Assembly: GCA_965206705.1 (NCBI GenBank)
Contig: CBDBKJ010000005.1
Coordinates: 642,979-706,978 of the forward strand
DNA length: 64,000 bases
Direction of reading: 5' to 3'
Source of the DNA: Vicinamibacterales bacterium
GTDB lineage: Bacteria > Acidobacteriota > Vicinamibacteria > Vicinamibacterales > UBA8438
Below, one piece after another: positions 757 to 50,289 of the stretch (position 1 is the first letter of the stretch; every line of letters begins with the position of its first letter). The notes beneath the pieces were generated by a model. That model saw nothing but the letters and a program-made list of their open reading frames with translations, was not told the origin of the DNA and searched no databases. The position numbers were made by a program, and so were the translations under genes.

Positions 757-2316
757 CTAACGGTCCGTCTCGCTGCCCAACGGTGTGCGGCCGGAGAGTA
801 TCTCGTAGAAGTCGTCGCGGGCGCCGGGGTCGGACGTGAACCGCGAGACGATGGGAATGACCGCGAGCGGCACGAAGAAAGTGAGATACGAGGGGTCGAG
901 GCCTTCGCCGTCGACGGTGAGGGCGTGCGCCAGGGTGCGGGTCACGAGCCCGGCCGACTCGGGGGCGGTGACCCCGGCGGCGAGGGCGATCTTGATCGCC
1001 GCGAACCAGATCAGCCCGCCCCCGTATCCGACCGCCATGCCCCACCAGGCTCCCTGCTCGGTGGTCCGGGGCCAGTAGATGAGATAGCCGAGGGCCACCG
1101 CCGGCGGGACCACCATGGCGAAGCCGAACAGCAGCAGGTCGAGGATCGAGATCGTCGTCTGGGTGGCCACGAACCAGGCGGCCAGCGCCGCCGCGAAGGC
1201 ATAGAGGGTCGTGGTGACGCGGTACGCCTTGAGCTGCTGCTCAGACGTCTGGCGGCGGGTGGACGGCAGCCAGTCGCGCACCACCATCGTGGCGCTCGAC
1301 AAGAGGATCGGGCCGCCGGAGGAGATGACCGCGGCCAGCACCGCGGCCAGCGCCACCCCGCCGACCAAGGGGTTGATCTCGGAAGCCAGGGTTGTGAGGT
1401 TGCGGTAGCCGCTCAGCCCGGTATCGAGACCGTAGCGGGCGGTGGTGAGGATGCCGATCAGACCCCCGAGCACCGACATCGCGGCCGCAATCAGCCCCCC
1501 GATCAGAAACGCCGGCGCGATCTGCCGCTCGGTGCGGGCCGCCGTCGAGTAGTTCGTGTACACCGAGGCGGCCGGCGTGTGCACCGCCGCCGCGAAGAAC
1601 ATCCCGATGACCGGGAGCCACCCGGCTCCGGCGACTCCCCACCAGGCTGACTCGTCCTCGGATGCCGCGGCCAGGTGGTCGCCGATGGCCGCGGTGACCT
1701 CGGGCCAGCCGCCGAGCTGGTCGATGCCCATCAGGCCCACCCAGAGAAGGCCGACCAGCACCACGGAGCAGTGGATGAGATTCGTCACCGCGGTGCCCCA
1801 CAACCCGCCCAGGGAGACGTAGGTGGAGAAGATGACGGCCGCCACCATGACCCCGCCGAACATCGACAGGGGGGTCAGCGTGCTCAGGATGACCCCGATG
1901 ACGTACGCCTCGATGAGGTTGACGACGGCGTACTCCGTCTGCACGCACAGGCTCGTGAGCCATTGGCACCGCCGCTTCACGAAGCGGATCGTGAACAGCT
2001 CGCCGACCGTCTGGAGCCGGAAGCGCCGGTAGTAGACGCCGAAGAAGAGCCCGACGATGGCCAGGGCGAGAAAGGTGTTGATGCCGTACCACCACAGGTT
2101 CCAGACGCCGCCGCTGATGACGTCGCCGGCCACGCCGTAGGTGCCGGCGCCCCCGATGCGGGTGCCGGCGACGCCGAACGCGACCATGGCGGTGGACATG
2201 CCGCCGCCGGCCACCGCCCAGCCCGCCGAGCTGCGAGCGCGGCGGGCCATGAGGCTCCCGACGGTGGTGGCCGCCACGAGGTACACGACGATGGTCGCGG
2301 GCGCGATCACGTCCAT
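757..2316 (-). CDS. sodium:solute symporter (SSS) family transporter
   Basis: 519-aa polytopic hydrophobic protein. The N-terminal pattern (...GGGMSTAMVAFGVAG...WWYGINTFLALAIVGLFFGVYYRR...) is typical of the SSS family. Co-directional with the upstream selenoprotein gene. Confidence 0.8.
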   Translation of the reverse strand: MDVIAPATIVVYLVAATTVGSLMARRARSSAGWAVAGGGMSTAMVAFGVAGTRIGGAGTYGVAGDVISGGVWNLWWYGINTFLALAIVGLFFGVYYRRFRLQTVGELFTIRFVKRRCQWLTSLCVQTEYAVVNLIEAYVIGVILSTLTPLSMFGGVMVAAVIFSTYVSLGGLWGTAVTNLIHCSVVLVGLLWVGLMGIDQLGGWPEVTAAIGDHLAAASEDESAWWGVAGAGWLPVIGMFFAAAVHTPAASVYTNYSTAARTERQIAPAFLIGGLIAAAMSVLGGLIGILTTARYGLDTGLSGYRNLTTLASEINPLVGGVALAAVLAAVISSGGPILLSSATMVVRDWLPSTRRQTSEQQLKAYRVTTTLYAFAAALAAWFVATQTTISILDLLLFGFAMVVPPAVALGYLIYWPRTTEQGAWWGMAVGYGGGLIWFAAIKIALAAGVTAPESAGLVTRTLAHALTVDGEGLDPSYLTFFVPLAVIPIVSRFTSDPGARDDFYEILSGRTPLGSETDR

Positions 2317-2365: not shown

Positions 2366-2917
2366 TCATGGGCGGGCGGTCAGCGCGGCGAGGATGGCGT
2401 CTATCGCATCCCGCGCCTTTGCCCGCATCTCATCGTCGGTGGCGTCCTGAATCGGATGCGGCACGAACACCGAGCCGCTCGCGATCGCGGGCATGCCAAG
2501 GGCCTCCGCCTGCATCCGGGCGGCGCGGACGAACTCGCTCGACGCCACCATGACGGCGGGGATTCCGCGGGTCTCGTAGTCGACCATGTCGTGCACACTG
2601 CACGACGTGCAGGACCCTCAATCGGCGAGGGCCTGGATGACGGCCCGGCACCGCGCGCCCACCTCCTCCCGCAGGTCGTCCGGGGCCGGCTTGGTATAGG
2701 TCGGCTTGCGCAGGCGGATGACCTCGAGCGACGGCAGCCGCTCGCCGACGAGCCGCTCCACCTCGTCGCAGAAGACATCGCCCCGCGCCTTCGCGATGTC
2801 GATGATGCCCAGGGCGCCCTCGAGGCGGGCGGGCCGGGCCGCGGGCTGCCGCCCCATGGGGGCGCGTTCGTCGGTCGGGTCCAGAATGATCGGGGATTCG
2901 TCGCGCATGTGGTTCAT
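2366..2917 (-). CDS. UGSC-family selenoprotein; in-frame TGA (Sec) at 2618..2620; motif U-G-S-C-T-S-C
   Basis: ORFs 2618..2917 and 2366..2596 are in the same frame (2917-2596=321) and separated only by one TGA. Read-through gives ...AVIQALAD-U-GSCTSCSVHDMVDYETRGIPAVMV..., 183 aa. A UGSC family (seleno)protein is recalled from NCBI naming. The alternative start at 2908 has a better-spaced GAGGA. Confidence 0.7.
2591..2612 (-). promoter_or_regulatory. candidate bacterial SECIS hairpin(s) immediately 3' of the UGA
   Basis: mRNA sense is UGAGGGUC-CUGCAC-GUC-GUGCAG-UG-UGCAC. There are two overlapping perfect hairpins: CUGCAC/GUGCAG (loop GUC) and GUGCA/UGCAC (loop GUG). They start 8 nt after the UGA, with G-containing apical loops. 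Confidence 0.4.
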
Positions 2918-3016: not shown

Positions 3017-4660
3017 CTATCCCGCGATCTCCCGCGTCACCGCCGTCGAGCCGGCGGCGCCGCTGGCCCAGCCGCCCAACACCGCCGAGAACTTGCCGGC
3101 GGTGCCCCCGGCCACGACGATCAGGATGTCGTCGTCGCGGCGGAACTTCGGCAGACGGGTATCGAGGGCCTCCGCCGTCGGCCGGCCGTCCGCGCCGAGG
3201 TACTCCGGCGGCAGGGCGCCGAGGGCCATGCCCTTCTGGCACTGCTCGTCCGGCAACAGCTCCCGCAGGGGCCTCGCCGTCACCTCCTGAATGCGGGTCC
3301 GGAGGTCCGCCTTGGTGTAGTTCTCCCGCGCGAATGTCCGTGCGTGCTCGGGACTGACCACCAGCAGCACCTCGCCCATGCGGTGCAGCTTGGGGTGCGC
3401 CATGGTCTCCAGGCACCACCCCATGCTGGCCCCCAGCGACCGCGCGGTCCGCGACAGTTGATCCCGGATCGCCCGCGGCGCCTCGCCGGCGAAGACGGTG
3501 ACGGTGCTCGTCTCCGCCGGAAACCCGCGCTCGACGTGCAACGGCTCCCACCCGCTGACTTCTTCGTGCTCGGCGATGCAGCAGGTGAACTTGCCCGGCT
3601 GCCCGAGGGTCGACATGTCGACCTCGCCGGGGCGCCCGCCGCCGACGTTGCGCACGAGAAGCTGCAGCGCCCGGCCGATGGTGGCGTTGGCCCGGAACCC
3701 CTGTCCGAAGACGTTGCCGCCGCAGTTGAGGCCGATGCGCTGGCGGATCGGCCCGTTGACGACGATGACGGGCGTCGCGAAGTAGGTCGTGGCCAGCACG
3801 CCGTGCAGATTGAACGTATCGGTGCACGCGGCCTCGGCGGCCGCGATGACCACCGGCAGATACTCCGGGCGGCAGCCGGCCATGACCGCGTTGATCGCGA
3901 CCTTCTCCACCGTGGCCGGGGCGAGGTTCGGGGGCACGTGGGCGACGACGTCGGACGCCGCCCGGGAGGTGCCTTCGAGCATCCGCAGCACCCGATCCTC
4001 GGTCGGGGGGACGACCGGGAGCCCGTCGCCGAGCCCCTGCGACGCCATGAACTCGAACGGATCGTCGTCGACGGGGATGCGCACCCGCCGGGCCCCCAGC
4101 GTGGCCGCGCCGCGCCGCACCGCGAGGCGGCGGGCCACGTCGGGGTCATGGATCTTCGAGCCGCACCCCGGACGATGCTCGGGCAGACCGTCCTCGTCCC
4201 GGACGATCTCGGGCGCGGCGACCCCGCACGCACCCGCCGCGTCCCGAATCAGGGCGATCAGGTCCTGCTTCACGAACCCCTCGAAGCTGCGCCGGACCCG
4301 GCGGGCCTCGCCGGCCAGGACCAGGGCCGGCACTGCATCGAACCCGTAGTCGGCCGACACCGTGAGGTCGGCGTCGAGGGCCACGTCGAAGCTCAGGCCG
4401 TGCCGGTCCACGAACCCGGCAGTGTCGGCGGCGGCGTCCTGGGAGACTCCCGCGAGCCGCAGGCCGTGCGGGCCGAGGGCCTGGTGAAGCCGCTCGATCA
4501 GCGGCGCCGTCAGGTCGCACGTCGCGCAATCGTGCTTGAAGAAGAAAATCAGGGTGGCCCCGGGGGCGTCGCCGTCGCCGTCGAACGCGAGGGTGGCGCC
4601 TTGCCCGTCGGCCAGCGAGAAGGCCGGCGCCTCGGCGCCGGGGGCGGGCAGGTCGGACAT
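3017..4660 (-). CDS. fusion protein: N-terminal thioredoxin-fold redoxin (AhpC/TSA-like, CATC) + ~390-aa uncharacterised C-terminal domain
   Basis: ATG at 4660 (MSDLPAPGAEAPAFSLADG...). ATLIFFFKHDCATCDLTAPLIERL is a redoxin CxxC region. The C-terminal part (GLGDGLPVVPPTEDRV...NLHGVLATTYFATPVIVVNGP...) matches no family I can name. Confidence 0.75.
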   Translation of the reverse strand: MSDLPAPGAEAPAFSLADGQGATLAFDGDGDAPGATLIFFFKHDCATCDLTAPLIERLHQALGPHGLRLAGVSQDAAADTAGFVDRHGLSFDVALDADLTVSADYGFDAVPALVLAGEARRVRRSFEGFVKQDLIALIRDAAGACGVAAPEIVRDEDGLPEHRPGCGSKIHDPDVARRLAVRRGAATLGARRVRIPVDDDPFEFMASQGLGDGLPVVPPTEDRVLRMLEGTSRAASDVVAHVPPNLAPATVEKVAINAVMAGCRPEYLPVVIAAAEAACTDTFNLHGVLATTYFATPVIVVNGPIRQRIGLNCGGNVFGQGFRANATIGRALQLLVRNVGGGRPGEVDMSTLGQPGKFTCCIAEHEEVSGWEPLHVERGFPAETSTVTVFAGEAPRAIRDQLSRTARSLGASMGWCLETMAHPKLHRMGEVLLVVSPEHARTFARENYTKADLRTRIQEVTARPLRELLPDEQCQKGMALGALPPEYLGADGRPTAEALDTRLPKFRRDDDILIVVAGGTAGKFSAVLGGWASGAAGSTAVTREIAG

Positions 4661-4815
4661 GGCGAGAAGTTTACCTTGATGCGGCGGTTCCCGGTTCCGC
4701 GCGTGCCGAGCGCACCGGTTCCGCCGCCGGCTGGGGTACCATGTTCGCCATGGGCAAACGAGTCGCATTCGTCTTGGGGCTCGCGATCGATCCTGCTCCG
4801 CAGGCGAAAGGAATC

Positions 4816-5211
4816 ATGAGCCGAAACGTCTTGCTGTCGTTGATGCTGGCCGCCGCGGCCGGTTCGCTGGGTGGGTGCGACTCGCTCGGTTCTCTCAATC
4901 CCTTTTCGCCCGACGATGAGGACTTGCATCCGGTATTCGCAGAACTGGTTCCGGACCAGACCTGGACGGTCGATACCGCCGTCCACCTCTCGCTGCCGGC
5001 CGCTGGCGAGGGGAACCCGCCGCTGACCTACGGGCTCTCGCCGGAGCTCCCCGCCGGACTCACGTTCGACGCCGCCGCGCGGACCGTCACCGGTACGCCG
5101 ACCGCCGTCCTGTCTATGACCACCTACATCTATACCGTCACCGACGACGACGACGATACCGCGTCGATGCAGTTCCAGGTCACCGTCGTCGCGGCATCCG
5201 GTTCCGGATAG
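4816..5211 (+). CDS. small lipoprotein with putative Ig-like (cadherin/dystroglycan-type) domain
   Basis: MSRNVLLSLMLAAAAGSLGGC has a lipobox (LGGC) after a GAAAGG RBS. LTYGLSPELPAGLTFDAAARTVTGTPT is the classic putative-Ig-domain repeat signature. Confidence 0.65.
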   Translation: MSRNVLLSLMLAAAAGSLGGCDSLGSLNPFSPDDEDLHPVFAELVPDQTWTVDTAVHLSLPAAGEGNPPLTYGLSPELPAGLTFDAAARTVTGTPTAVLSMTTYIYTVTDDDDDTASMQFQVTVVAASGSG

Positions 5212-5388
5212 ACCAGTTCATCGAACCGTTCCGCAACGTCCGGTGCGAACGTCCATGGCCGTTCGACCGTGGGCTTCAGTACCAGAGCGGCAACCGGGTT
5301 GAGATGGTTCGCGGGCGACGCGATATCACAATGGGAGACTTCATCGTCGTTCGTCCTCACAAGTCAACGGGGACGGAGCCCGTCCGGG

Positions 5389-7566
5389 TCATGACGACGC
5401 ATTTCTGTTGACCTTGCGAAAGGTGAGCGAAATGCGGCGCTTTCGTTTCGTGCGTTTCTCACCCGGCCCGCCGGGTTCGCTCTTTCTCTTCGGCAATTCA
5501 TGCGTCCATTCACGACGAGCCTCGCCGCTCATGACTGCCACACTACGTCGCTCGAGCGGTTGTTCGACCTTCTTCTTCGCTCGCCGTTTGCGGAAAACCA
5601 TCACCCAGGACTCCAGCAGGCTGATGGTCGCGATGCTGTCGGCGAAGCTGATGCTATCCACATGGGCGCTGATGCCCTGATCCTCAATGTACTCGTTGAC
5701 GATAACCTGATCGGGACGCTGTGGCACGAGTCCTTCCGAAACAAGGCGCCGCGCCAGTGCGTCCGCCCAGTCCGGAAGCGGGCCAAGCCGCATGGATGGG
5801 TCGACGTGACGGGCCTTGTAGTCGTACCGCCACCCGTAGTGCTGAACACGCCGAGACAGTTCGGTTTTCCATTCCTGCTGGCCGATGCACGTGACCAGCA
5901 TTTCCTCGTCGTCAGCACTCAGGAAATCCCGCACATACACCAAACCGGGCACGGTCAGCCGTTCGGGTTGCGTGCTGGGGACCGGCAGGAGAGGCGGATT
6001 CGGTAGCGGCCCGGCCTCCGTGGCGACGAGGCGCCGGAACCGGCCGACATCGAGCCCCTTCTCCACTTCCTGGTTCGGCGGCAAACGCAGCCGCACTTCC
6101 CCCTGAACCTCGATCCGCGCTTCCGGAGTGTCGAGTGTACGCACCGCGCCGGGGCCAACATAGGGAATCTGCACGTCCCTCAGGACAACCTCCCCAAAAA
6201 CGCACGGCCAGTTGCGTTTCGTCGCGAGTTTCAGGGCTTCCCTGCGAACCTGCGCGTTCCTGATATCGATCCCGAACCACCGGCCGCGTGCATGCTCGGG
6301 TTTGGCGAAGAAGTCCCTGCCGCCCCAGGACAGGATGATGTTGCCGCCGGCTCGCCGCCATTGCGGCATTTTGGCCAGGGCGGTCGGCCAGCGAATGCCT
6401 CGTGATCCGGCGGCAGTCAGGCGCAAGGCGTGAATGGAAAGCAGTTCACGTTGCAGCGCTTCTCCCCGAAACTGCACATCGAGCCCGCGATACCCATGAA
6501 GAAGACCGCACAGGGTCGCGGCGGACCACCCGATTCCCGGCGGGATCTGCGGCAGGTCCTTGAACCACGTCTTGAACCTCGCCGGCGCGGGACGGGCCAG
6601 CACCAGTTGAATCGCTATTCCGACGGGACAGTGCCGCCAGTTCTGGAGCTGAACGACCGACTCGGCGCGCAAGATCCTGGTCGTTGCGTCCAGCCACGCC
6701 GTCGTCTCGCGGCCGTCCTCTGGCCTGCCCTGCAGCGCCTCCTCATGAATACGGGTCGCCAGTTCCCGGGCATCGACACGAGCGCCGGCCGTCTGGCCAC
6801 GAAAGACCTCCACGGCGGCCAGCCAGAGACGATCGTGCCGGCTGGCCGGAACGGCGTCATCCAGCCGTCCCCCCCAGGGTGGCAGGCACCACCACGAGGC
6901 ATCCACCTTGGCCGCCATGGCGGCCAAGGCCGATCGTTGAGGGTCCAGGCTCGCCGCAAGCGTGTCCAGCCAGAGATCAATCCGCGGGACGCCCCACACG
7001 GCCATGCTCATGGCGCCGTGGATGGCATCCAGTTCGTCCGGAATGCCGATGCCCGTCGTCGCTATTGAAGGGTAGCTCTTCAGGTCGACGCGGTCCCCCG
7101 GGTCGGCCTCGACTTTGACCAGCTCTTCGGGCAGTGCGAGATTGGAGGCGCGTCTCGCCATGCCTGCAAGCCGAACACGCTCTTCTGCGGTCGATACCGA
7201 GATCTCCGAAATGGCGAACACCGGCAGGGCGCCGGGCCAATAGAGGGCGTGGTCGGTTGGTTGGACTCCGCCCAGGCGGCAAAGCCGCCAGCGTTCGTTC
7301 CGCAGAACGTGAATATCGAGGTCGGGCAGCTTTGCCGGATCGAGTCGTGCGTGAACAGGTATCGAATGCACTGCGTCGGACGGGTGTTCGTCACGCGCGT
7401 ACGCTCCGACTCCGATTGGCTGCCCCCACGACGACCGGGGTCGCAGCCAGCCGTCCTGAAGCGCATCGAACAGACGTCGATTGTCGGTGGCCAGTCCGAG
7501 CCACCGGGAGTCCGGTTCGCGGCTTTCAGAAAAGTCCATCGGCATCTGGGATTCGTGGATTGTCAT
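5389..7566 (-). CDS. 725-aa protein: ~535-aa N-terminal region of unknown function + C-terminal AlkB-type 2OG/Fe(II) dioxygenase domain (approx. 5392..5958)
   Basis: C-terminus: ...RVQHYGWRYDY...VIVNEYIEDQGISAHVDS (HxD)...REWTHEL (distal His)...RRISLTFRKV (RxSxTFR 2OG-binding). The start overlaps the upstream gene's stop (7563/7566). Confidence 0.8.
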   Translation of the reverse strand: MTIHESQMPMDFSESREPDSRWLGLATDNRRLFDALQDGWLRPRSSWGQPIGVGAYARDEHPSDAVHSIPVHARLDPAKLPDLDIHVLRNERWRLCRLGGVQPTDHALYWPGALPVFAISEISVSTAEERVRLAGMARRASNLALPEELVKVEADPGDRVDLKSYPSIATTGIGIPDELDAIHGAMSMAVWGVPRIDLWLDTLAASLDPQRSALAAMAAKVDASWWCLPPWGGRLDDAVPASRHDRLWLAAVEVFRGQTAGARVDARELATRIHEEALQGRPEDGRETTAWLDATTRILRAESVVQLQNWRHCPVGIAIQLVLARPAPARFKTWFKDLPQIPPGIGWSAATLCGLLHGYRGLDVQFRGEALQRELLSIHALRLTAAGSRGIRWPTALAKMPQWRRAGGNIILSWGGRDFFAKPEHARGRWFGIDIRNAQVRREALKLATKRNWPCVFGEVVLRDVQIPYVGPGAVRTLDTPEARIEVQGEVRLRLPPNQEVEKGLDVGRFRRLVATEAGPLPNPPLLPVPSTQPERLTVPGLVYVRDFLSADDEEMLVTCIGQQEWKTELSRRVQHYGWRYDYKARHVDPSMRLGPLPDWADALARRLVSEGLVPQRPDQVIVNEYIEDQGISAHVDSISFADSIATISLLESWVMVFRKRRAKKKVEQPLERRSVAVMSGEARREWTHELPKRKSEPGGPGEKRTKRKRRISLTFRKVNRNASS

Positions 7567-8678
7567 GACCGCTCCAGAATATCCGGACTCGGCAACGCGT
7601 CCACCGCTGCTTGCGTGAGGGAATCGGGTCCGTACACCAGAAACAGGCTGTCACGAGCGCGGGTGCACATCATGTACATCGCGCGTAGATCCGCTGCATT
7701 CTTGCACGGCAAGAAACGATCCAGTTCCAAGAGGAAAACCGTATCGAATTCCTGGCCCTTTATGGATGCCTTGTTCAGCAAGGTCACGCCCGGTGAGAGC
7801 AGGTCTATTCTCCCTTCGTTTTGCAGATCGCTTCTGTATATATCAACGCGCTTGCCCTCCAGTTTGCGGACGAGCAAGGCGTGCAAGGCATCGCCGGTGC
7901 CGTTTTGATCGACGACGATGCCAACGCTGCCGCCACGCACGACGCACCAGTTCGACACCAGCTTGGCTGTGGATTCAAGGCTCGCCGATCGGTAGAGTCG
8001 GGGACGCTCGCCAGAGGTTGGGCGGAGCACCGTGGCGGCGGGCAGACCGCCCCCATGGAAGTGCTCGGCCATCCTCGCCACTTCCGGCGCATTCCTATGG
8101 TTTTTCGTCAGAATAAGCGGGTCATTCAGGCCGCTTGCGGTCTTGATGTCTGCGAGCGACGTGCATTGATCTGCGATCGCTTGATCTTCGTCCGCAAAGA
8201 CGGACATTGTTCCTGATACACGCGAAGCGTATCTGAAAAAGCCATAAGGAAGGTCTTGCCCCTCATCCACGACAAGGTGAAACCGTTCAGGGCCATGGTC
8301 AGGCGTCAGGCGTGCGAGCATCACGTCCCAATCATGAACATACTCCTGAAGCTGCGGTGGTGAGACGCCAGTTCGCTGTTTGAAGTCATGCCAGATAAAG
8401 GTATGCATCGTACTAGCTTCCGGAACGATGCGCATTTCGCGATCCGTTGCGGACTCCTTCATCTGTTCCAGCAAGCGCCGCAGCATACGATTGTAGGTGA
8501 CGAGTTTGACGGCCAGCCCCGACCCCGCCTCCACCAGCATCCGGGCCCGGTGCAGGGCAAGGACGGTCTTGCCAGAACCCGGAGGCCCCACAACGAACAG
8601 CGACCGGTCAAGGGGGTATTCCAGTACGTTGAGCTGGTCCTGCGCATTGGCGATTTCGTTCCAGGTGGGAAGCTGCAT
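7563..8678 (-). CDS. SF1 UvrD-like helicase/ATPase (short, ~371 aa)
   Basis: Walker A VVGPPGSGKT, Walker B HLVVDEGQDLP, ADEDQAI, KNHRNAPEV, IKGQEFDTVFLLE and MCTRARDSL. Start chosen at MQLPTWNEI (8678); the upstream extension to 8834 runs through a repeat and looks non-coding. Confidence 0.8.
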   Translation of the reverse strand: MQLPTWNEIANAQDQLNVLEYPLDRSLFVVGPPGSGKTVLALHRARMLVEAGSGLAVKLVTYNRMLRRLLEQMKESATDREMRIVPEASTMHTFIWHDFKQRTGVSPPQLQEYVHDWDVMLARLTPDHGPERFHLVVDEGQDLPYGFFRYASRVSGTMSVFADEDQAIADQCTSLADIKTASGLNDPLILTKNHRNAPEVARMAEHFHGGGLPAATVLRPTSGERPRLYRSASLESTAKLVSNWCVVRGGSVGIVVDQNGTGDALHALLVRKLEGKRVDIYRSDLQNEGRIDLLSPGVTLLNKASIKGQEFDTVFLLELDRFLPCKNAADLRAMYMMCTRARDSLFLVYGPDSLTQAAVDALPSPDILERS

Positions 8679-8729
8679 GTCGGTTTTCTCAAAGTTGAAG
8701 GGTGTCTTGCGCAGCGCGGTGAAACAGTG

Positions 8730-8779
8730 CGTATCTAAGCGGGGCGGTCGTACATGGTTCCAGTGCTTCTCTCCGCCTC
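8730..8779. repeat. direct repeat copy 1 (50 nt)
   Basis: CGTATCTAAGCGGGGCGGTCGTACATGGTTCCAGTGCTTCTCTCCGCCTC. Identical to 8956..9004 except for one extra G in the G-run. Confidence 0.85.
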
Positions 8780-8866
8780 CGAAGGACCGGAGCGCAGCGG
8801 AGGACGCGCGATTGTTCCGCCCGCAGCAAGCCACCGCACGCCCGCCCCGGAAGCGGAATCCGCGGG

Positions 8867-9742
8867 TCAGTTCCGAGCTGCCTTTTCGCCGTCAGCCGCG
8901 CCTCGTGGACCCGCCGAATCGGCTCCGATTCCACCCACACCTGTTTTAGGAGAGCCGTATCTAAGCGGGCGGTCGTACATGGTTCCAGTGCTTCTCTCCG
9001 CCTCGATTGTTCCGTTGTCGTCCGCGATCATCCAGAATCCTGCAGCGTGCAGCGAGCTCCTGAAGCCGGGGAAAGCGAGGTTGGCGGCCGGCCTGACAGA
9101 ATTCGTATAGAGGACGGTAACAGGTCCTCGGCCAAGTTTGTTGAGCAGTTTTTCCAAGTCCTCAATGAGCGTGACCGCGTTCAGCGTCGGACTTGCGAGC
9201 AGGTAGGAAACAATGACGAACACTGGACGCCACTTCGGCGCCGGGCGCCAAGACACGGAGGAGATCGCGGACGACCAGTGGCGAGCGATCCGGAGCGCCC
9301 TATTGTGGTGTTCCGCCGCGCTTGCGAGTCGTTCGCCGAGCTCGCGCATCGCCTTGGATCGATCCACCCCGATGTAGTCGAATCTCGGGGCGGCGCCGAG
9401 AGCGCTGGCGAACGCAAGTCCGCCGGTAAACGGCCCGCAGCCCAAATCAACAACGATTGGTGCTTCCGGCAACGGTCCGGTAAACAGCATTTGAAACGCC
9501 TCGATGAGCTCCTGAAGGTGTCCAAATTGAAAAAAGTGAGTGTACATCAGGACGCGGTCGTCAGGCGACAAGTCCTGCCAACCCGTATCGAAATCGGCCT
9601 GTCCCCACCCGGCGATCTGGTGCGTTGCAGTGTTGCCATCGTAGCCAAGTATCGTGCCAGGCTGGGAACGAGGATCCATGTTTACGCGCTGCGTGATTTC
9701 AATGTCACGCAGCTTTTGCAGCCATTGGGGAAGTTGAGACAT
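8867..9742 (-). CDS. class I SAM-dependent methyltransferase-like protein (C-terminus altered by a 226-bp duplication/insertion)
   Basis: Motif I-like IVVDLGCGPFTGGLAF followed by YIGVDRS. There is no other recognisable family signature. The last ~45 codons run through repeat copy 2 and a G+C-rich insert. Confidence 0.55.
   Translation of the reverse strand: MSQLPQWLQKLRDIEITQRVNMDPRSQPGTILGYDGNTATHQIAGWGQADFDTGWQDLSPDDRVLMYTHFFQFGHLQELIEAFQMLFTGPLPEAPIVVDLGCGPFTGGLAFASALGAAPRFDYIGVDRSKAMRELGERLASAAEHHNRALRIARHWSSAISSVSWRPAPKWRPVFVIVSYLLASPTLNAVTLIEDLEKLLNKLGRGPVTVLYTNSVRPAANLAFPGFRSSLHAAGFWMIADDNGTIEAERSTGTMYDRPLRYGSPKTGVGGIGADSAGPRGAADGEKAARN
8956..9004. repeat. direct repeat copy 2 (49 nt)
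   Basis: CGTATCTAAGCGGGCGGTCGTACATGGTTCCAGTGCTTCTCTCCGCCTC. Lies inside the 3' end of the MTase-like ORF (encodes EAERSTGTMYDRPLRY). Confidence 0.85.
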
Positions 9743-19998: not shown

Positions 19999-21360
19999 TC
20001 ATTCGGCCGGGGCGAGCGATTCGAGTCGGGCCTCGAGGTCGCGCGGGGCGTGGAAGACGTAGGTCCGCCCGCCGATCCGCCGCCGGTCGAGGAGCCCGAG
20101 CTCCGCGAGCCGGAAAAGATCGGCGCGGGCGGTAGCGTACGCGACATCGTGACTCGTCCGGTGGGACCGGGTCGTGTACTCGCCGTCCGGGTGACGGACA
20201 GCGTGGGCGAGCAGCGCGAGCTGGCGGTGGTTGAGGTCGGTTGAATGCTTGAGTCTGCGTTCGACCCGCTGCACCTGCTCGATCTTGGTTTCGAAGTACG
20301 TGTCGAGCTCGTCGATTGCGCGGCGAATCACGTCGACCTGATGCACGATGAAGTAGGTCAGGTCGTTCTCGTCGGTTTCGGTGTGGAGGAGCGCCCGGGC
20401 GTACTGCGCCGGAGCGGCCTTGAGAAATCGGCTGATCGAGACGAATTCGAACAGCCAATAGTCGTGGTGCAGCATCGCCCAGTAGAACAGCGCCCGGGCC
20501 GTGCGTCCGTTGCCGTCCTCGAACGGATGGTCGAAGGCGAGCCAGAAGTGCAACACGATGGCGCGGACGACGGGGTGCATGAACGCCCCGTCGTCGGCGT
20601 CCCGATTCGCGAACTGCACCATCTCGTTCAAGCGGCCGGGCAGTTGCTCTGCCGGCGGTGGATGGTAGAGCACCCGTTCCTGGGCATCACAGACCTCGAC
20701 CCGCTCGTCCTCGGGCCGTTGCAGACGCCCGGCCGCGGCCGGATCGCGAAGGGTGTCTTCCGTCAGTGTGACGTGCAGATCCCGCACCGCGTCCTCGGTC
20801 AGCGGCGAGTCCTTCATCGTGCGGACCGCCCGCATGGCGCGGTAGTTGTTCAGGATCATCCGTTCGCTGCGGTCCCTGGGGCGCCGTCCCGCGCGGAGCA
20901 TCCGCATCGCGGCGGCCCGCGTCGTGGAGGCGCCTTCGAGCTGGCTCGACGTGATGGCTTCCTGGATCAGCGAGTTGACGATGAACCGATCCCGGGTCTG
21001 CCGATTGGCCACGGTGTCGGACATTCCAATCCGGCCGCCGGCCCGGCTGTCGATTAGGTGCAGCGCCTCCTGGACGCGGTCGGGCAGCATGAAGTGGAAC
21101 GGCCGTCCGCGCGCGTCACGCAGTGGGATCTGGCGGAACAGGCCGCTTCGGGACAGCTTGATGCCGGTCCACCATTCCTCGCAGCTCAGGTCCCCGGGCG
21201 GATCGAGCCGTCGCAGCGTGTCCCAGTGAAGATAGCGGCCGTCCACCGTCGGGTGGAAGGAGTGGCGCATCAGCGCCGGCAGGCGATCGCTATGTCTCGC
21301 GATCAGCTCATGGAGGGGCAACTGGGAACGTGGTCGCTTCACGGTCACATCCTTCGTCAA
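19999..21360 (-). CDS. Fic family protein (class II, AMPylase-type active site)
   Basis: Canonical HPFEDGNGRTARAL (HxFx[DE]GNGRxxR) and an N-terminal inhibitory-helix motif SSQLEG ([ST]xxxE[GN]). C-terminal winged-helix-like tail. Confidence 0.9.
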   Translation of the reverse strand: MTKDVTVKRPRSQLPLHELIARHSDRLPALMRHSFHPTVDGRYLHWDTLRRLDPPGDLSCEEWWTGIKLSRSGLFRQIPLRDARGRPFHFMLPDRVQEALHLIDSRAGGRIGMSDTVANRQTRDRFIVNSLIQEAITSSQLEGASTTRAAAMRMLRAGRRPRDRSERMILNNYRAMRAVRTMKDSPLTEDAVRDLHVTLTEDTLRDPAAAGRLQRPEDERVEVCDAQERVLYHPPPAEQLPGRLNEMVQFANRDADDGAFMHPVVRAIVLHFWLAFDHPFEDGNGRTARALFYWAMLHHDYWLFEFVSISRFLKAAPAQYARALLHTETDENDLTYFIVHQVDVIRRAIDELDTYFETKIEQVQRVERRLKHSTDLNHRQLALLAHAVRHPDGEYTTRSHRTSHDVAYATARADLFRLAELGLLDRRRIGGRTYVFHAPRDLEARLESLAPAE

Positions 21361-21453: not shown

Positions 21454-21897
21454 GGCGCTCTGCGAACGGCGTGGGTGTGACGATCTGCATGAAGGGGTCC
21501 GCCGTGCGATCACGCGCGATTCCTCGGCGGGTGCGAGTCCCGTCTGGCAACTGTTGTTCCAGCCGGAAGCAGTCGGAGCGGACGAAGTGCCTGGGCGGTC
21601 TGCTCGACAGGTTTGGCGGTGAGACGCCCCTCCGCCAGCTCCCTCACAGTTCGGCCGATCGGACCTCGGCACGCGTAGCGGAAGAACGGTGCGCAAGAAA
21701 GCGAATTTTTCGCTTGACAACATTTTCGACCGCAGATCCTTCGCGGTCTGGGTGCGAGATGCAAGCGCGCTCTGGCTGCTGCATTGGCCCCCTGTGGCTC
21801 GGCGCCGGCCAGGAAGATCCAAACCGACCCACGCGCCCCGAATCGACGCGCACGGGCGCTCTTAAGCCATTTAGAAACAGGGGTTTACAATGGGTTT

Positions 21898-23547
21898 ATG
21901 AACGTTGCCCCAAACCAACAAGAGACGCGTCTCACAGCCCTCGCCCCGACATCCGCAGCCGTTGGCGCGACCACGCCGCGCGGAGCGCAGTCGCCAATGT
22001 CGCAGGCGGCGGTCCCGACGTGCATCGAGGATCAACGCGCGTCGGTTCTCGAGCGCCGCGACGACGCCCAACGTATTGGCGACGGCATCGCCGAGCTGTC
22101 GGCCCGCATCCAGGCCGCCACCTACGAGCTCCTCGGAATGATTCGCGCCTTCGACGAGCGCGAGGGGTGGGCCGGGTTCGTGTCCTGCGCTCACTGGCTG
22201 AACTGGCGCACCGGACTCGCCCTGGGCGCGGCCCGCGAGAAGGTGCGGGTGGCGCGCGCGCTGGCAGACCTGCCGTTGCTGAGCGAGGCGATGCACCGGG
22301 GTCGGATCTCCTACTCGAAGGTACGCGCTCTGACCCGGGTGGCGACGCCCGCGAACGAGCGCCGTCTCCTCGACTTCGCGCTGTCCGGCACGGCGGCCCA
22401 CGTCGAACGGCTGGCGCGGGCTTGGCGCCGAGCGGACCGGCTGGCCGAGGGGGCCGACGAACAGCGGCGGCAGGAGCGCCGGAACCTGACCACCTGGGTC
22501 GACGACGACGGGATGGTCGTCATTCGGGGCCGGCTGTCGCCCGAGGTGGGCGCCGTTGTGCGGCGGGCGCTGGAGGCGGCGGCCGACCGGTTGCGCGCGG
22601 AGGTGTCGCTGGAAGAAGCGGCGGAGAACAGCGTCGGCCAGCGGCAGGCGGATGCGCTGGGGGTAGTGGCCGAGAGCGCGTTGGCCGCCGACCTCGACCG
22701 AGGGACGGCCGGCGATCGCTACCAGGTCGTGCTGCACGTTGAGGTGGAGACGCTCCAAGCCGAGGCCGGGGACGGCGAGCCGGACGTTTCCGCGGAGACG
22801 CGGCCCGGCGCACTGCCGACGGCGAGTCCGGGTCCAGCGGGGGTGGTGATCGTCGGTTCGGACGTTTCCGCGGAGACGTCATCGCGCGTCGCCGGCGTCC
22901 GCGCGTGTGCAGATACGAGCGGTTGCCCGGCCCCGGCTGTCCCTTCTGATCGTGTTCCCGGCCAAGCCGCGCTCGAAGACGCCGACGGGCTCCGGGTGTC
23001 CGTCGAAACCGCCAAACGGATGGCGTGCGACGCGGCGGTGGTGGTGATGCGGCATGGCGTTGACGGCTCCGTCCTCGACGTCGGCCGCAAGACACGCACC
23101 ATCCCGCCGGCGCTCCGGCGCGCGCTGCAGGCGCGCGACCGCCAGTGCCGGTTCCCCGGCTGTCACGCCCGACGGTGCGATGTCCACCACGTCCGGCCCT
23201 GGGCCGACGGGGGTCCGACCCGGCTCGACAACCTCGTGCTCCTCTGCCGCCGGCACCACCGGGCGGTCCACGAGGAGGGCTTCCAGGTTGGAATGGGTCC
23301 GGCGGGCGATACCGAGTTCCGCTGGCCCGATGGCCGACCGTTCCCCCACGTACCGGTGGCGCCTGCCTGGTCCGGCCGGCCGCTGGCGCCAACAGATGAG
23401 CGTCTGGCCGACGCCGAGATCGCGATCGGCCCCGACACGGCGACGCCGGACTGGTATGGAGAGCGTCTCGATCTCGGCTACGCGATTGACGTCATGTGGA
23501 TGCCGCGCAGCGGCTCCGGTGCAAATGCAGGCGGCGCGCAGTCATAG
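21898..23547 (+). CDS. DUF222-type HNH endonuclease
   Basis: N-terminal DUF222-like region (ATYELLGMIRAFDEREGW...ISYSKVRALTRVA). C-terminal HNH: CRFPGCHARRCDVHHVRPWADGGPTRLDNLVLLCRRHHRAVHE. Confidence 0.85.
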   Translation: MNVAPNQQETRLTALAPTSAAVGATTPRGAQSPMSQAAVPTCIEDQRASVLERRDDAQRIGDGIAELSARIQAATYELLGMIRAFDEREGWAGFVSCAHWLNWRTGLALGAAREKVRVARALADLPLLSEAMHRGRISYSKVRALTRVATPANERRLLDFALSGTAAHVERLARAWRRADRLAEGADEQRRQERRNLTTWVDDDGMVVIRGRLSPEVGAVVRRALEAAADRLRAEVSLEEAAENSVGQRQADALGVVAESALAADLDRGTAGDRYQVVLHVEVETLQAEAGDGEPDVSAETRPGALPTASPGPAGVVIVGSDVSAETSSRVAGVRACADTSGCPAPAVPSDRVPGQAALEDADGLRVSVETAKRMACDAAVVVMRHGVDGSVLDVGRKTRTIPPALRRALQARDRQCRFPGCHARRCDVHHVRPWADGGPTRLDNLVLLCRRHHRAVHEEGFQVGMGPAGDTEFRWPDGRPFPHVPVAPAWSGRPLAPTDERLADAEIAIGPDTATPDWYGERLDLGYAIDVMWMPRSGSGANAGGAQS

Positions 23548-32569: not shown

Positions 32570-33892
32570 ATGGCAGACTCGTTGCGAGACATCCTCCTGG
32601 ACTTTCAGGAGGCGGACCTGGCAACCGGCGTCCCGCGCCGGATGGACGTCACGCCAATACCCGGCAAGGCGACCGTCTGCATCGGGCCGCGGCGCGCCGG
32701 CAAGTCGACCTTCCTGTTCCAGCTCGTGGGGAAGTTGCTCGACCGCGGCGTGTCGCGCGAGAACATCCTCTACCTGAACCTGTTCGACGACCGGCTCCAC
32801 CACCTCCACCGGGACGGGCTCGGCGCCGTGGCGGAGGCGTACTTTTCGCTCTACCCGGAGAAGAAGCACACGGAGACGGTCTACTGCTTCTTCGACGAGA
32901 TCCAGGTCATCCCCGGCTGGGAGCCGTTTGTGGACCGTCTCATGCGGACCGACCGTTGCGAGGTGTACATCACCGGGTCGTCGGCCCGCATGCTGTCCCG
33001 CGAGATTGCGACGCAGATGCGCGGCCGGGCGTTGGCCTGGGAGATCTTCCCGTTCTCGTTCCGCGAGTTCCTCGATTGGAAGGGCATTGACGCCGCCGGT
33101 CCGTTGTCGACGCGGCGCCGCCTGCTCGTGCACAAGGCGTTCGACGAGTACTGGGAGCGGGGCGGGTTTCCGGAGGTCGCGGGCGTGGACCGCGCCCTGC
33201 GCATCCGGATTCACCAGGAGTACTGGAGCGCGATGCTGTTTCGCGACATCGTCGAACGCCATGACGTTTCCCATCCCCGCGCGGTCTCGGACCTGGCCCA
33301 TCGGCTGGTGGACAACACCGCGTCCCTCTACTCCGTCAACCGGCTCACGGGCTATCTGCAGTCGCTCGGGCACCGAGCCCCGAAGGCGGCGGTGTCCAGC
33401 TACCTGGAGTGGTTCGAGGACGCGTTCTTCCTGTTCACGGTGCGCATCTTCGACGCCTCCCTGGCGCGCGCCAACGCGAATCCCAAGAAGATCTACTGCG
33501 TCGATCATGCCCTGGTGACGTCTGTCGGCTCGGGCGTCCTCGTCAACGCCGGTCACCTGCTCGAGAACCTCGTGTTCCTGGCGTTGCGCCGATCCTCCCC
33601 GGACATCTCCTACTACCGTTGCGCGAACGGACGCGAGGTCGACTTCGCCGTACGAATGCCGGACGGCTCGCGCGCCCTCGTCCAGGCCTGCGAGTCGCTG
33701 GCCGACCCCGGGACGCGGAAGCGGGAAGTGAAGGGGCTCCGCACCGCGATGACGGAGTTGCGCCTGCGCACCGGTACCATCGTGACCCGTGACGAGGAGG
33801 AAACGGTGCCGGTCGACGGCGGCGCCATCGAAGTCGTGCCCGCCTGGCGGTTCCTTCTGGACCCCGTGGATGTCGTCTTGCGGGGAGGGTAG
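32570..33892 (+). CDS. AAA+ ATPase with DUF4143-type C-terminal domain
   Basis: Walker A GPRRAGKST, Walker B CFFDEIQ, then ITGSSARML. The architecture is that of the common AAA_14/DUF4143 ATP-binding proteins. Confidence 0.8.
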   Translation: MADSLRDILLDFQEADLATGVPRRMDVTPIPGKATVCIGPRRAGKSTFLFQLVGKLLDRGVSRENILYLNLFDDRLHHLHRDGLGAVAEAYFSLYPEKKHTETVYCFFDEIQVIPGWEPFVDRLMRTDRCEVYITGSSARMLSREIATQMRGRALAWEIFPFSFREFLDWKGIDAAGPLSTRRRLLVHKAFDEYWERGGFPEVAGVDRALRIRIHQEYWSAMLFRDIVERHDVSHPRAVSDLAHRLVDNTASLYSVNRLTGYLQSLGHRAPKAAVSSYLEWFEDAFFLFTVRIFDASLARANANPKKIYCVDHALVTSVGSGVLVNAGHLLENLVFLALRRSSPDISYYRCANGREVDFAVRMPDGSRALVQACESLADPGTRKREVKGLRTAMTELRLRTGTIVTRDEEETVPVDGGAIEVVPAWRFLLDPVDVVLRGG

Positions 33893-48992: not shown

Positions 48993-50156
48993 TCACGAGG
49001 CCGTCTTCGACCACGCTCCGGCCCACAACCGATCCAGGAAATCGGTCCAGGGCAGCACGCGGATGCCGTCCACGAGGCGGGGCGCCCGCTCCATGGAGAC
49101 GATCACGTAGTCGGCGCACAGGCCCTCCTCGCGCAAGGCCCTGATGCCTTTCATGTCCCGCGCCCCCACTTGCGCCTTCGCCTTGACCTCGACGGCCAGA
49201 CCCCCGAACACGAAGTCGACCTCGAACTGCGATTTCGACCGCCAGTACCGCGGCGTGTCGAGCCGGTGATGATCGCACCAGGCCTTGATTTCCTGGAAGA
49301 TGAAGCTCTCGAACGCGACGCCGTACTCGGACGTTCCCGGCGCGAGCCCCCGCCGTCCCTGGAGATGGCGGGCAAGCCCCACGTCGAACAGGTAGTACTT
49401 GGACGTGGAGATCGCCTTGCGCTTCCGCGTGTCGGTGAACGCCGGCACCTCGTGGGCGATCAGGGTGTCCTTCAGTATCTGGTAGTACTCCCGAACCGTC
49501 GACGCCGGCACCTGCGCGTCGTTGGCCAGGTTGGCGAAGTTGATCATGTCGCCGTGGGCCAGCGCCGCGACTTCGAGGAAGCGGCTGAACGCGCCGATGT
49601 TCCTGACTATGGCCTCGGCCGCGACCTCCTCCCGGAGATAGTCGCCGGCGTAGCCGGCGAGGTCCTCGGCCGGCGACTCGGAAAAGTAGATCGACGGCAG
49701 CAGGCCATGTTCGAGCGCGCGATCCAGATCGAACCCATCACCGAGCTCGATACGGAGGAACGGGTGCAGCACGCGGGACCGCGCCCGGCCCCCCAGCAGG
49801 TTCACGCCCTTGCGCCGTAGGCGCCGCGCGCTCGAGCCGGTCAGCAGGAACCGGATTCCGCGCTCCTCGATCAGCAGGTGCACCTCGTTGAGCAGCTCCG
49901 GCAGCCGCTGGATCTCGTCGATCACCACGATGGCGGGCCCGCCCCGGTCGGCCAGCGACTCGCGGATGAGCGCCGGATTCCGGGAGAGGCGCAGGAACAG
50001 CGTCTGGTCCAGCAGGTTCCAGACCGGACAGTCCGCGAACTGCTGGCGGATCAACGTCGACTTGCCGGTCTGCCGCGGACCGAAGAGGAAGCACGACTTC
50101 CGCTCCACCACGGCCCGCAGGTCCAGGCGGCGGGGGATGATCGGAGGCTTCTTCAT
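48993..50156 (-). CDS. AAA+ ATPase with DUF4143-type C-terminal domain (second copy)
   Basis: Walker A GPRQTGKST, Walker B VVIDEIQ, then LTGSSARRL. Same architecture as 32570..33892. Confidence 0.8.
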   Translation of the reverse strand: MKKPPIIPRRLDLRAVVERKSCFLFGPRQTGKSTLIRQQFADCPVWNLLDQTLFLRLSRNPALIRESLADRGGPAIVVIDEIQRLPELLNEVHLLIEERGIRFLLTGSSARRLRRKGVNLLGGRARSRVLHPFLRIELGDGFDLDRALEHGLLPSIYFSESPAEDLAGYAGDYLREEVAAEAIVRNIGAFSRFLEVAALAHGDMINFANLANDAQVPASTVREYYQILKDTLIAHEVPAFTDTRKRKAISTSKYYLFDVGLARHLQGRRGLAPGTSEYGVAFESFIFQEIKAWCDHHRLDTPRYWRSKSQFEVDFVFGGLAVEVKAKAQVGARDMKGIRALREEGLCADYVIVSMERAPRLVDGIRVLPWTDFLDRLWAGAWSKTAS

Positions 50157-50289
50157 GTCATGACATTCAGCAACAGTACCGCTGTTCATCATGACAACGA
50201 ACGACACATCCGGTCAATGGCTTCGCGTGCGCATGGTGGTGAAGGTGTTGACGTGGGGCGGGCCGTGCGGGTCTTCGGCGTACCGGAAT

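Follow-up and report, generated by a model that had tools for sequence, protein, structure and literature searches.

The results of this work show that a genuine gene of the UGSC selenoprotein family lies on the minus strand, at 2366..2917, of the 64,000-nucleotide stretch of Vicinamibacterales DNA analysed here (contig CBDBKJ010000005.1, positions 642,979 to 706,978; the whole stretch is called the window below), and that an in-frame UGA at 2618..2620, codon 100 of a 183-codon reading, is its selenocysteine (Sec) codon according to comparative data. The gene matches the family models, its UGA is conserved among relatives, the hairpin that follows the UGA is frozen at synonymous sites, and the part downstream of the UGA is under purifying selection. 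These data are very probably explained by a UGSC selenoprotein of about 180 amino acids, the UGA of which is recoded by a selenocysteine insertion sequence (SECIS), with a putative redox role exerted together with the product of the gene upstream, whose C-terminal domain we call X. The gene is an additional member of its family and not a novel one, given that publications on the family go back to 2007-2008 and that a curated NCBI model exists. The ‘UGSC-containing protein’ of Zhang and Gladyshev was initially seen in Hyphomonas neptunium and in metagenomic data (PMC1976440). The literature accepts it as a selenoprotein family whose function is unknown (PMC1976440, PMC2398784, PMC13188914), and a 2026 review still describes it as uncharacterised (PMC13188914). 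The window gene shares with its known members (e.g., H. neptunium ABI76733.1) the length of about 180 amino acids, the U-G-S-C column and the SECIS, and Sec-forms far outnumber Cys-forms among its relatives, just as in the literature. Nothing essential differs; what is particular here is the host (Vicinamibacterales, Acidobacteriota), a partner with an N-terminal redoxin, and a symporter gene downstream.

ORF finders split the gene into two minus-strand open reading frames (ORFs), 2618..2917 (99 amino acids) and 2366..2596 (76 amino acids), which have a common frame and a single TGA (2618-2620) between them. This is what the initial annotation, borne out on each point that could be checked, had described, and the 183-residue read-through product that it gave, ...IQALAD-U-GSCTSC-SVHDMVDYETRGIPAVMV..., is reproduced exactly by translation, with a stop codon at 2366-2368. 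Sec is the first residue of the motif U100-G-S-C103-T-S-C106, the two Cys codons of which lie at 2609-2611 and 2600-2602. The longest reading has 183 codons and begins at the ATG at 2917; judging from the sequence and the N-termini of homologues, however, the ATG at 2908 (180 amino acids) is the more likely start, and is preferred because an AGAGGA precedes it by 8 nt. When Cys is put in place of Sec, the protein reaches 150.4 bits against the NCBIfam hidden Markov model NF041046, ‘UGSC family (seleno)protein’ (cut-off 125), the family that the initial annotation had named, and 150.1 bits against the Pfam model PF24696 (UGSC; cut-off 25), the latter match covering residues 11-180 of 183 and thus the sequence before and after the TGA. 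The 12 relatives that were aligned also match the NF041046/PF24696 family. Given that the G+C content of the window is about 70%, long spurious ORFs are common in it, and TGAs were therefore screened for the G+C content of third codon positions (GC3) on both flanks; this TGA alone, of all those in the 64 kb, is flanked on either side by strong coding periodicity (GC3 0.95 upstream and 0.92 downstream).

If the UGA is a sense codon, relatives should keep it and go on in the same frame, which is what the comparison shows. A scan of one genome per species yielded more than 568 relatives, the best being metagenome-assembled genomes (MAGs) of Vicinamibacterales with up to 93% amino acid identity, and 85 genes were recovered from their loci. 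These represent at least six bacterial phyla (Acidobacteriota, Myxococcota, Chloroflexota, Actinomycetota, Gamma- and Alphaproteobacteria and Binatia), and every one of them (85/85) has TGA at the Sec codon and continues after it as G-S-C-T-[ST]-C-S-[VL]-H-D. The ratio of nonsynonymous to synonymous substitution rates (dN/dS), calculated between the window gene and 13 relatives, is 0.09-0.26 over the 72 codons after the TGA and 0.09-0.34 over the 85 codons before it. The conserved frame together with the low downstream dN/dS means that the part after the TGA is translated. Protein searches return full-length Cys-forms, in which ADCGSCTSC aligns with the ...ALAD-U-GSCTSC... of the window protein, along with many entries of 105-129 amino acids that end exactly at ...QALAD, i.e., that are truncated at the TGA. 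The alignment of homologues at the Sec column, proposed as a check in the initial annotation, thus gave TGA throughout the related genes and Cys in the genuine Cys-forms; its expectation that gene callers would truncate the gene holds as well, in that the closest database entries all end at the Sec codon, and its claim of a genuine Sec-containing protein is supported by this conservation and by a dN/dS downstream that is about as low as the one upstream.

Three full-length homologues in the databases (P0002, P0003 and P0004) have Gly, Arg or Trp in place of Sec. P0003 (L085, 4001-4543) has GGA at the Sec codon, followed by an otherwise intact SECIS, on a long-read contig where the neighbouring X and CoA-transferase genes are frameshifted, which points to a misassembly or to a copy in decay. 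It was considered as evidence against Sec and rejected on account of these frameshifted neighbours, being the only non-Cys variant that was checked. Protein databases over-represent such non-Sec variants because true Sec forms get truncated.

How the UGA may be recoded is indicated by the RNA that follows it. The mRNA from the Sec codon reads UGA GGG UCC UGC ACG UCG UGC AGU GUG CAC GAC, and the SECIS hairpin spans 2588..2606 (minus strand), with its core stem at 2590-2604 and its loop, G23-U24-G25 (the U of UGA being nucleotide 1), at 2596-2598. The consensus structure across phyla is a 6-bp stem, C17-A22/U26-G31, closed by a loop G23-U24-N25 (CGUGCA-GUN-UGCACG) and starting 11 nt after the UGA; in the window genome the pairs G15-C33 and U16-A32 lengthen it into GUCGUGCA-GUG-UGCACGAC (-12.4 kcal/mol), an extension of GUGCA-GUG-UGCAC. 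The 15-nt core is found a single time in the window, where 0.08 occurrences would be expected. Across the 85 genes there is no synonymous variation whatsoever at four consecutive codons, xCG, TGC (85/85), AGT (85/85) and GTG (68/68), whilst neighbouring or ordinary conserved residues have codon entropies of 0.9-2.1 bits; AGT is invariant although Ser has six possible codons. Three of the four Cys-form genes fetched as a control alter the frozen codons (e.g., AGT to TCG or ACG, and TCG to TCC), and hence the freeze is a property of the UGA-forms, as one would expect if it serves an RNA signal. The fourth, which has TGT, retains an intact hairpin, suggesting a recent conversion. As the hairpin is made of the codons for the conserved C-T-S-C-S-V-H, peptide and RNA signal are constrained together.

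The initial annotation had proposed two hairpins directly after the UGA, and both can form, even though only GUGCA-GUG-UGCAC is the conserved SECIS; its statement that bacterial SECISs carry a G in the apical loop agrees with what is seen here, including the canonical distance and the frozen synonymous sites. The other hairpin, CUGCAC-GUC-GUGCAG (-7.5 kcal/mol), leaves the frozen U24, G27 and C30 unexplained and would bury G23, and it is due to these frozen positions, the folding energies and the geometry that GUGCA-GUG-UGCAC is preferred. In E. coli, the upper stem-loop of the SECIS occupies nucleotides 15-31, with G23 and U24 in the loop, 11 nt from the UGA (PMC8659212). The window hairpin resembles this fdhF-type element in lying within the coding region, in starting 11 nt after the UGA (nucleotides 15-31/33) and in holding G23 and U24 in its apical loop. 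It differs in the size of that loop (3 nt, rising to 5 nt when the closing A-U pair is open), and in that no lower stem is conserved across the UGSC family and no Rfam model is matched; the search of Rfam with the hairpin, up to an E-value of 10, gave no family. The UGA at 2618-2620 is very probably decoded as selenocysteine, with the hairpin (core CGUGCA-GUG-UGCACG) acting as a bacterial SECIS that brings SelB-GTP-Sec-tRNASec to the ribosome, so that Sec is inserted where translation would otherwise terminate.

The UGSC protein does not seem to act by itself. Directly upstream of it on the minus strand, at 3017..4768, lies the partner gene, the longest ORF of which has 583 codons, although translation likely starts at the ATG at 4660, giving 547 amino acids as in homologues. 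Residues 43-170 (4259-4642, minus strand) form a ResA/TlpA/AhpC-like redoxin domain that matches PF00578 and PF08534 as well as, in profile searches, ResA structures (E 1e-10), and that contains a CATC motif (C81/C84; 4517-4528, minus strand). It shares the thioredoxin-like domain and the CxxC with the ResA/TlpA thiol-disulfide oxidoreductases, from which it differs in being fused to a large second domain, in showing no apparent signal peptide or membrane anchor in its sequence, and in scoring below the NCBIfam equivalog cut-offs. The second domain, X (about 390 amino acids, residues 191-583; 3020-4198, minus strand), is unclassified: no credible Pfam or NCBIfam family matches it at E-values up to 10, and sequence and profile searches of the PDB matched the redoxin part only. 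Homologues of the whole protein number more than 8000, with 545-551 amino acids, and X makes 5287 clusters at 50% identity. Two Cys of X are invariant, C12 (in PGCGS) and C109 (in AGC), and C125 and C207 are nearly so; many polar residues are invariant too, and a DGLPxxPPT motif is conserved.

X is the near-obligate, dedicated partner of UGSC. Of the 74 cases with enough sequence, 66 have it immediately before UGSC in the same orientation, and in 45 of these 66 the redoxin domain is present. The arrangement is seen in loci L003-L083 and L206-L209, the four Cys-form loci likewise have X upstream, and in about 17 loci the stop codon of X overlaps the start codon of UGSC (ATGA/GTGA). The two even occur as natural fusions: several representatives of about 460 amino acids consist of X followed by the first half of UGSC, their last residues being ...[AV]xxD, so that they stop at the Sec codon. 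In the gene calls of one such fusion a second UGSC fragment follows 21 nt further on, whilst the DNA of another reads GGA GAT TGA GGG GGC TGC TCC TCG TGC AGT GTG CAC GAC, which makes it a fusion selenoprotein with the same SECIS as the UGSC genes. As far as the mention of a ‘UGSC/Unknown_1 fusion’ in the Global Ocean Sampling (GOS) paper goes, these are probably the same proteins. The possibility that X itself is a selenoprotein was rejected, as 67 X genes contain no in-frame stop.

A second UGSC paralogue (..AIGD-U-GSCTSCSLHD..) is present in some Vicinamibacterales genomes, within a few kb of the first (L013 ~10241, L014 ~12081, L016 ~8050, L017 ~12052), accompanied by an X paralogue of its own, which has about 44% identity to the first and no redoxin domain. 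The window holds a single UGSC copy.

The adjacency of UGSC and X bears on the alternative that fares best, namely that the protein is a real selenoprotein acting as a stand-alone thioredoxin-like oxidoreductase, with X, the redoxin and the symporter unrelated to its function. The 2008 paper assigned UGSC a ‘likely Trx-like fold’, with which the AlphaFold2 (AF2) model obtained in this work disagrees. This model, made from the Cys-form P0001 (57% identical to the window protein; predicted local distance difference test score, pLDDT, 91), is a five-stranded alpha/beta/alpha sandwich of flavodoxin-like type, with the U/C-x-x-C-x-x-C motif at the start of the third helix, and its best Foldseek matches are flavodoxin, lumazine synthase and the CheY-like receiver of CheB; these are generic folds, and no thioredoxins are among them. 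A search of the PDB with the UGSC profile gave no matches. The predicted fold of UGSC is therefore flavodoxin-like and not thioredoxin-like. The eight of 74 UGSC genes without X upstream would fit a protein working alone; against this stand the adjacency of X in all the others, frequently so close that its stop codon overlaps the UGSC start codon, its presence beside the Cys-forms as well, and the natural fusions of the two. On balance we regard a stand-alone oxidoreductase as unlikely.

A second alternative accepts that the UGA is read through and denies that selenocysteine is inserted, either because a near-cognate Trp, Cys or Arg tRNA decodes it or because UGA has been reassigned in this lineage. 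The three homologues that have R, G or W there (P0002-P0004) would fit this, as would the failure to see Sec machinery in the window genome, of which 64 kb were looked at. Reassignment, however, is contradicted by the single in-frame TGA with coding signal in those 64 kb, and the one non-Cys variant checked (P0003) is the GGA copy with frameshifted neighbours. What is more, the hairpin has the position and the loop bases of a SelB-binding SECIS and is frozen only in the TGA-forms, and in other lineages with an identical hairpin the sel genes and tRNA-Sec adjoin the operon. A tRNA-Sec gene lies directly beside the X-UGSC operon in two Caulobacterales loci (L060, 1196-1290; L070, 4234-4328) and one Acidimicrobiaceae locus (L083, 6526-6621), and in L070, L083 and L039 the scores of SelA, SelB and SelD exceed the curated cut-offs; the gene order in the Caulobacterales and Acidimicrobiaceae clusters is either selB, tRNA-Sec, X, UGSC, selA or UGSC, tRNA-Sec, selA, selB, selD. 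Read-through without Sec is thus very improbable, and still more improbable is a UGA that acts as a true stop, be it in a pseudogene in which a Cys codon was hit by a nonsense mutation or misread in sequencing, or between two proteins of 99 and 76 amino acids, for in spite of the gene callers stopping there, of the closest database proteins (P0006-P0011) ending at ...QALAD and of a GTG start available at 2596, the same TGA in 85 genes from several phyla cannot be an independent error, the seven codons from the TGA to the first possible start encode an invariant G-S-C-T-S-C-S, a single model covers both halves, the Cys-forms are single ORFs, and the frame and dN/dS of the downstream half exclude both the pseudogene and the two-gene readings.

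The X-UGSC operon is found inside the sel cluster in MAGs of Caulobacterales and Acidimicrobiaceae. When the genome collection was scanned with a tRNA-Sec pattern derived from L060 and L083, the matches listed came from Acidimicrobiia and Caulobacterales only, and 10 of the 120 tRNA-Sec neighbourhoods of about 8 kb among the matches listed contained a TGA-type UGSC gene.

Several observations weigh against a SECIS-recoded UGSC protein with a redox role alongside X. Concerning the hairpin, its folding energy is unexceptional compared to shuffled sequences (z = -0.5 to -2.5, in a GC-rich context), for which reason its significance comes from the comparative data and not from thermodynamics. The stem is invariant across genes and shows no compensatory changes, its complementarity is partly forced by the conserved peptide, the bulged U17 that contacts SelB in E. 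coli is absent (C17 being paired), and the alternative hairpin of 5-6 bp (CUGYAC-NNN-GUGCAG) also fits all sequences, so that pair counts cannot separate the two. Concerning the machinery, ARAGORN finds not a single tRNA gene in the window and tblastn with the SelA, SelB and SelD of related loci finds no homologue there, and tRNA-Sec, selA, selB and selD were found neither in the window nor in 18 Vicinamibacterales loci (ARAGORN, Rfam, tblastn); our literature search found no paper linking Vicinamibacterales to selenocysteine, and it is from the comparative data that we infer the Sec trait of this genome. Concerning the partner, no relative of known function could be detected for X, and its AF2 model, mediocre in itself (pLDDT 62), has a best Foldseek E-value of 0.23. 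Finally, the similarity of UGSC to known selenoenzymes described below is far beneath the family thresholds.

That similarity is to the B subunits of the glycine reductase type, a link that the initial annotation had drawn from the U-x-x-C-x-x-C motif and that finds weak but repeated backing in profile matches over the Sec region. Five of the 12 UGSC members weakly match GrdF (best E 4e-4) or GrdB (2e-3) there, and the models for GrdH and for selenoprotein B in general are matched by two members each, over the same region. These scores lie well below the cut-offs of the GrdB-type families (TIGR01917, 16.4 bits against 602; NF040794, 15.2 against 800; TIGR01918, 13 against 65), and PF07355 is not matched by UGSC proteins. 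The data are consistent with a distant relationship between the Sec region of UGSC and the C-terminal part of GrdB, GrdF, GrdH and PrdB. With these proteins (TIGR01917, NF040794, NF040795, TIGR01918) UGSC has in common the U-x-x-C-x-x-C motif, the weak profile similarity (residues 84-172 of UGSC against 331-413 of GrdB) and the association with a larger partner subunit. It differs from them in its scores (13-16 bits against cut-offs of 65-800) and in its length of only about 180 amino acids, lacking the N-terminal part of about 330; X, moreover, does not resemble GrdE or PrdA, and genes like grdA, grdC or grdD are absent from the neighbourhood. The hosts of UGSC are largely aerobic bacteria of soil and water that are not known as Stickland fermenters.

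As to what the protein might do, we infer its chemistry, electron path and substrate from these likenesses and from the genes around it. UGSC is probably a small cytoplasmic flavodoxin-like alpha/beta protein with a U-x-x-C-x-x-C centre at the N-terminus of a helix, where Sec would serve as nucleophile or redox centre and form a selenenyl-sulfide with the neighbouring Cys. It is probably the redox subunit of a two-part enzyme in which X is the catalytic or substrate-binding part, the fused ResA/TlpA-like CxxC redoxin may re-reduce the UGSC centre, and the adjacent symporter may import the substrate. The most specific form of this proposal, to which we give only tentative credence, would have UGSC and X as an undescribed two-component selenoenzyme, with X binding a small-molecule substrate that lineage-specific transporters deliver (the SSF symporter in the window, TRAP plus TonB systems at the Cys-form loci), the UxxCxxC centre carrying out a reductive cleavage similar to that of GrdB/PrdB, and the redoxin recycling it.

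The symporter gene (757..2316, minus strand; TIGR00813, PF00474), of the sodium:solute symporter (SSF) family, begins 49 nt downstream of UGSC. The order redoxin-X, UGSC, SSF is conserved in Vicinamibacterales loci and no terminator-like site was found between the three genes, and the SSF gene is probably co-transcribed with UGSC. Two Cys-form loci (L208 and L209, 1-5004) have the X-UGSC pair after a TonB-dependent receptor and a tripartite ATP-independent periplasmic (TRAP) transporter (DctP/Q/M), which are present in place of the SSF symporter. That transporters of different kinds accompany one enzyme pair hints at a small-molecule substrate taken up from outside.

Other neighbours of the locus are genes for a nucleoside hydrolase and a pyrroloquinoline quinone (PQQ) dehydrogenase, which adjoin redoxin-X in related contigs. 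In the window, an inserted stretch of lower GC content (4741-9742; 0.61-0.66) separates them from it. Its ORFs encode a He_PIG Ig-domain protein, a 725-residue protein ending in a 2-oxoglutarate-Fe(II) oxygenase domain, a 423-residue AAA/UvrD-like protein with weak GajB-like PADLOC matches, and a 291-residue methyltransferase-like protein, and the whole may represent a mobile or defence island. Four further genes, unrelated to the selenoprotein, lie in or near patches of lower GC elsewhere in the window, at 32570-33892 (+), 48993-50207 (-), 21784-23547 (+) and 19999-21360 (-); two are AAA_14+DUF4143 ATPases, one is a DUF222+HNH endonuclease and one is a Fic-domain gene.

In conclusion, the gene at 2366..2917 is a clean and well-supported case of a selenoprotein gene split by ORF finders. 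For the family it offers four handles for finding its function, i.e., a near-obligate and sometimes fused partner, a predicted fold other than that of thioredoxin, a Sec region distantly resembling that of GrdB, and transporters in the neighbourhood. Should UGSC and X indeed make up a two-component selenoenzyme, this enzyme would be widespread in aerobic soil and aquatic bacteria and, with its operon lying in the sel clusters, X-UGSC would be a main reason for which Caulobacterales and Acidimicrobiia keep their selenocysteine machinery.

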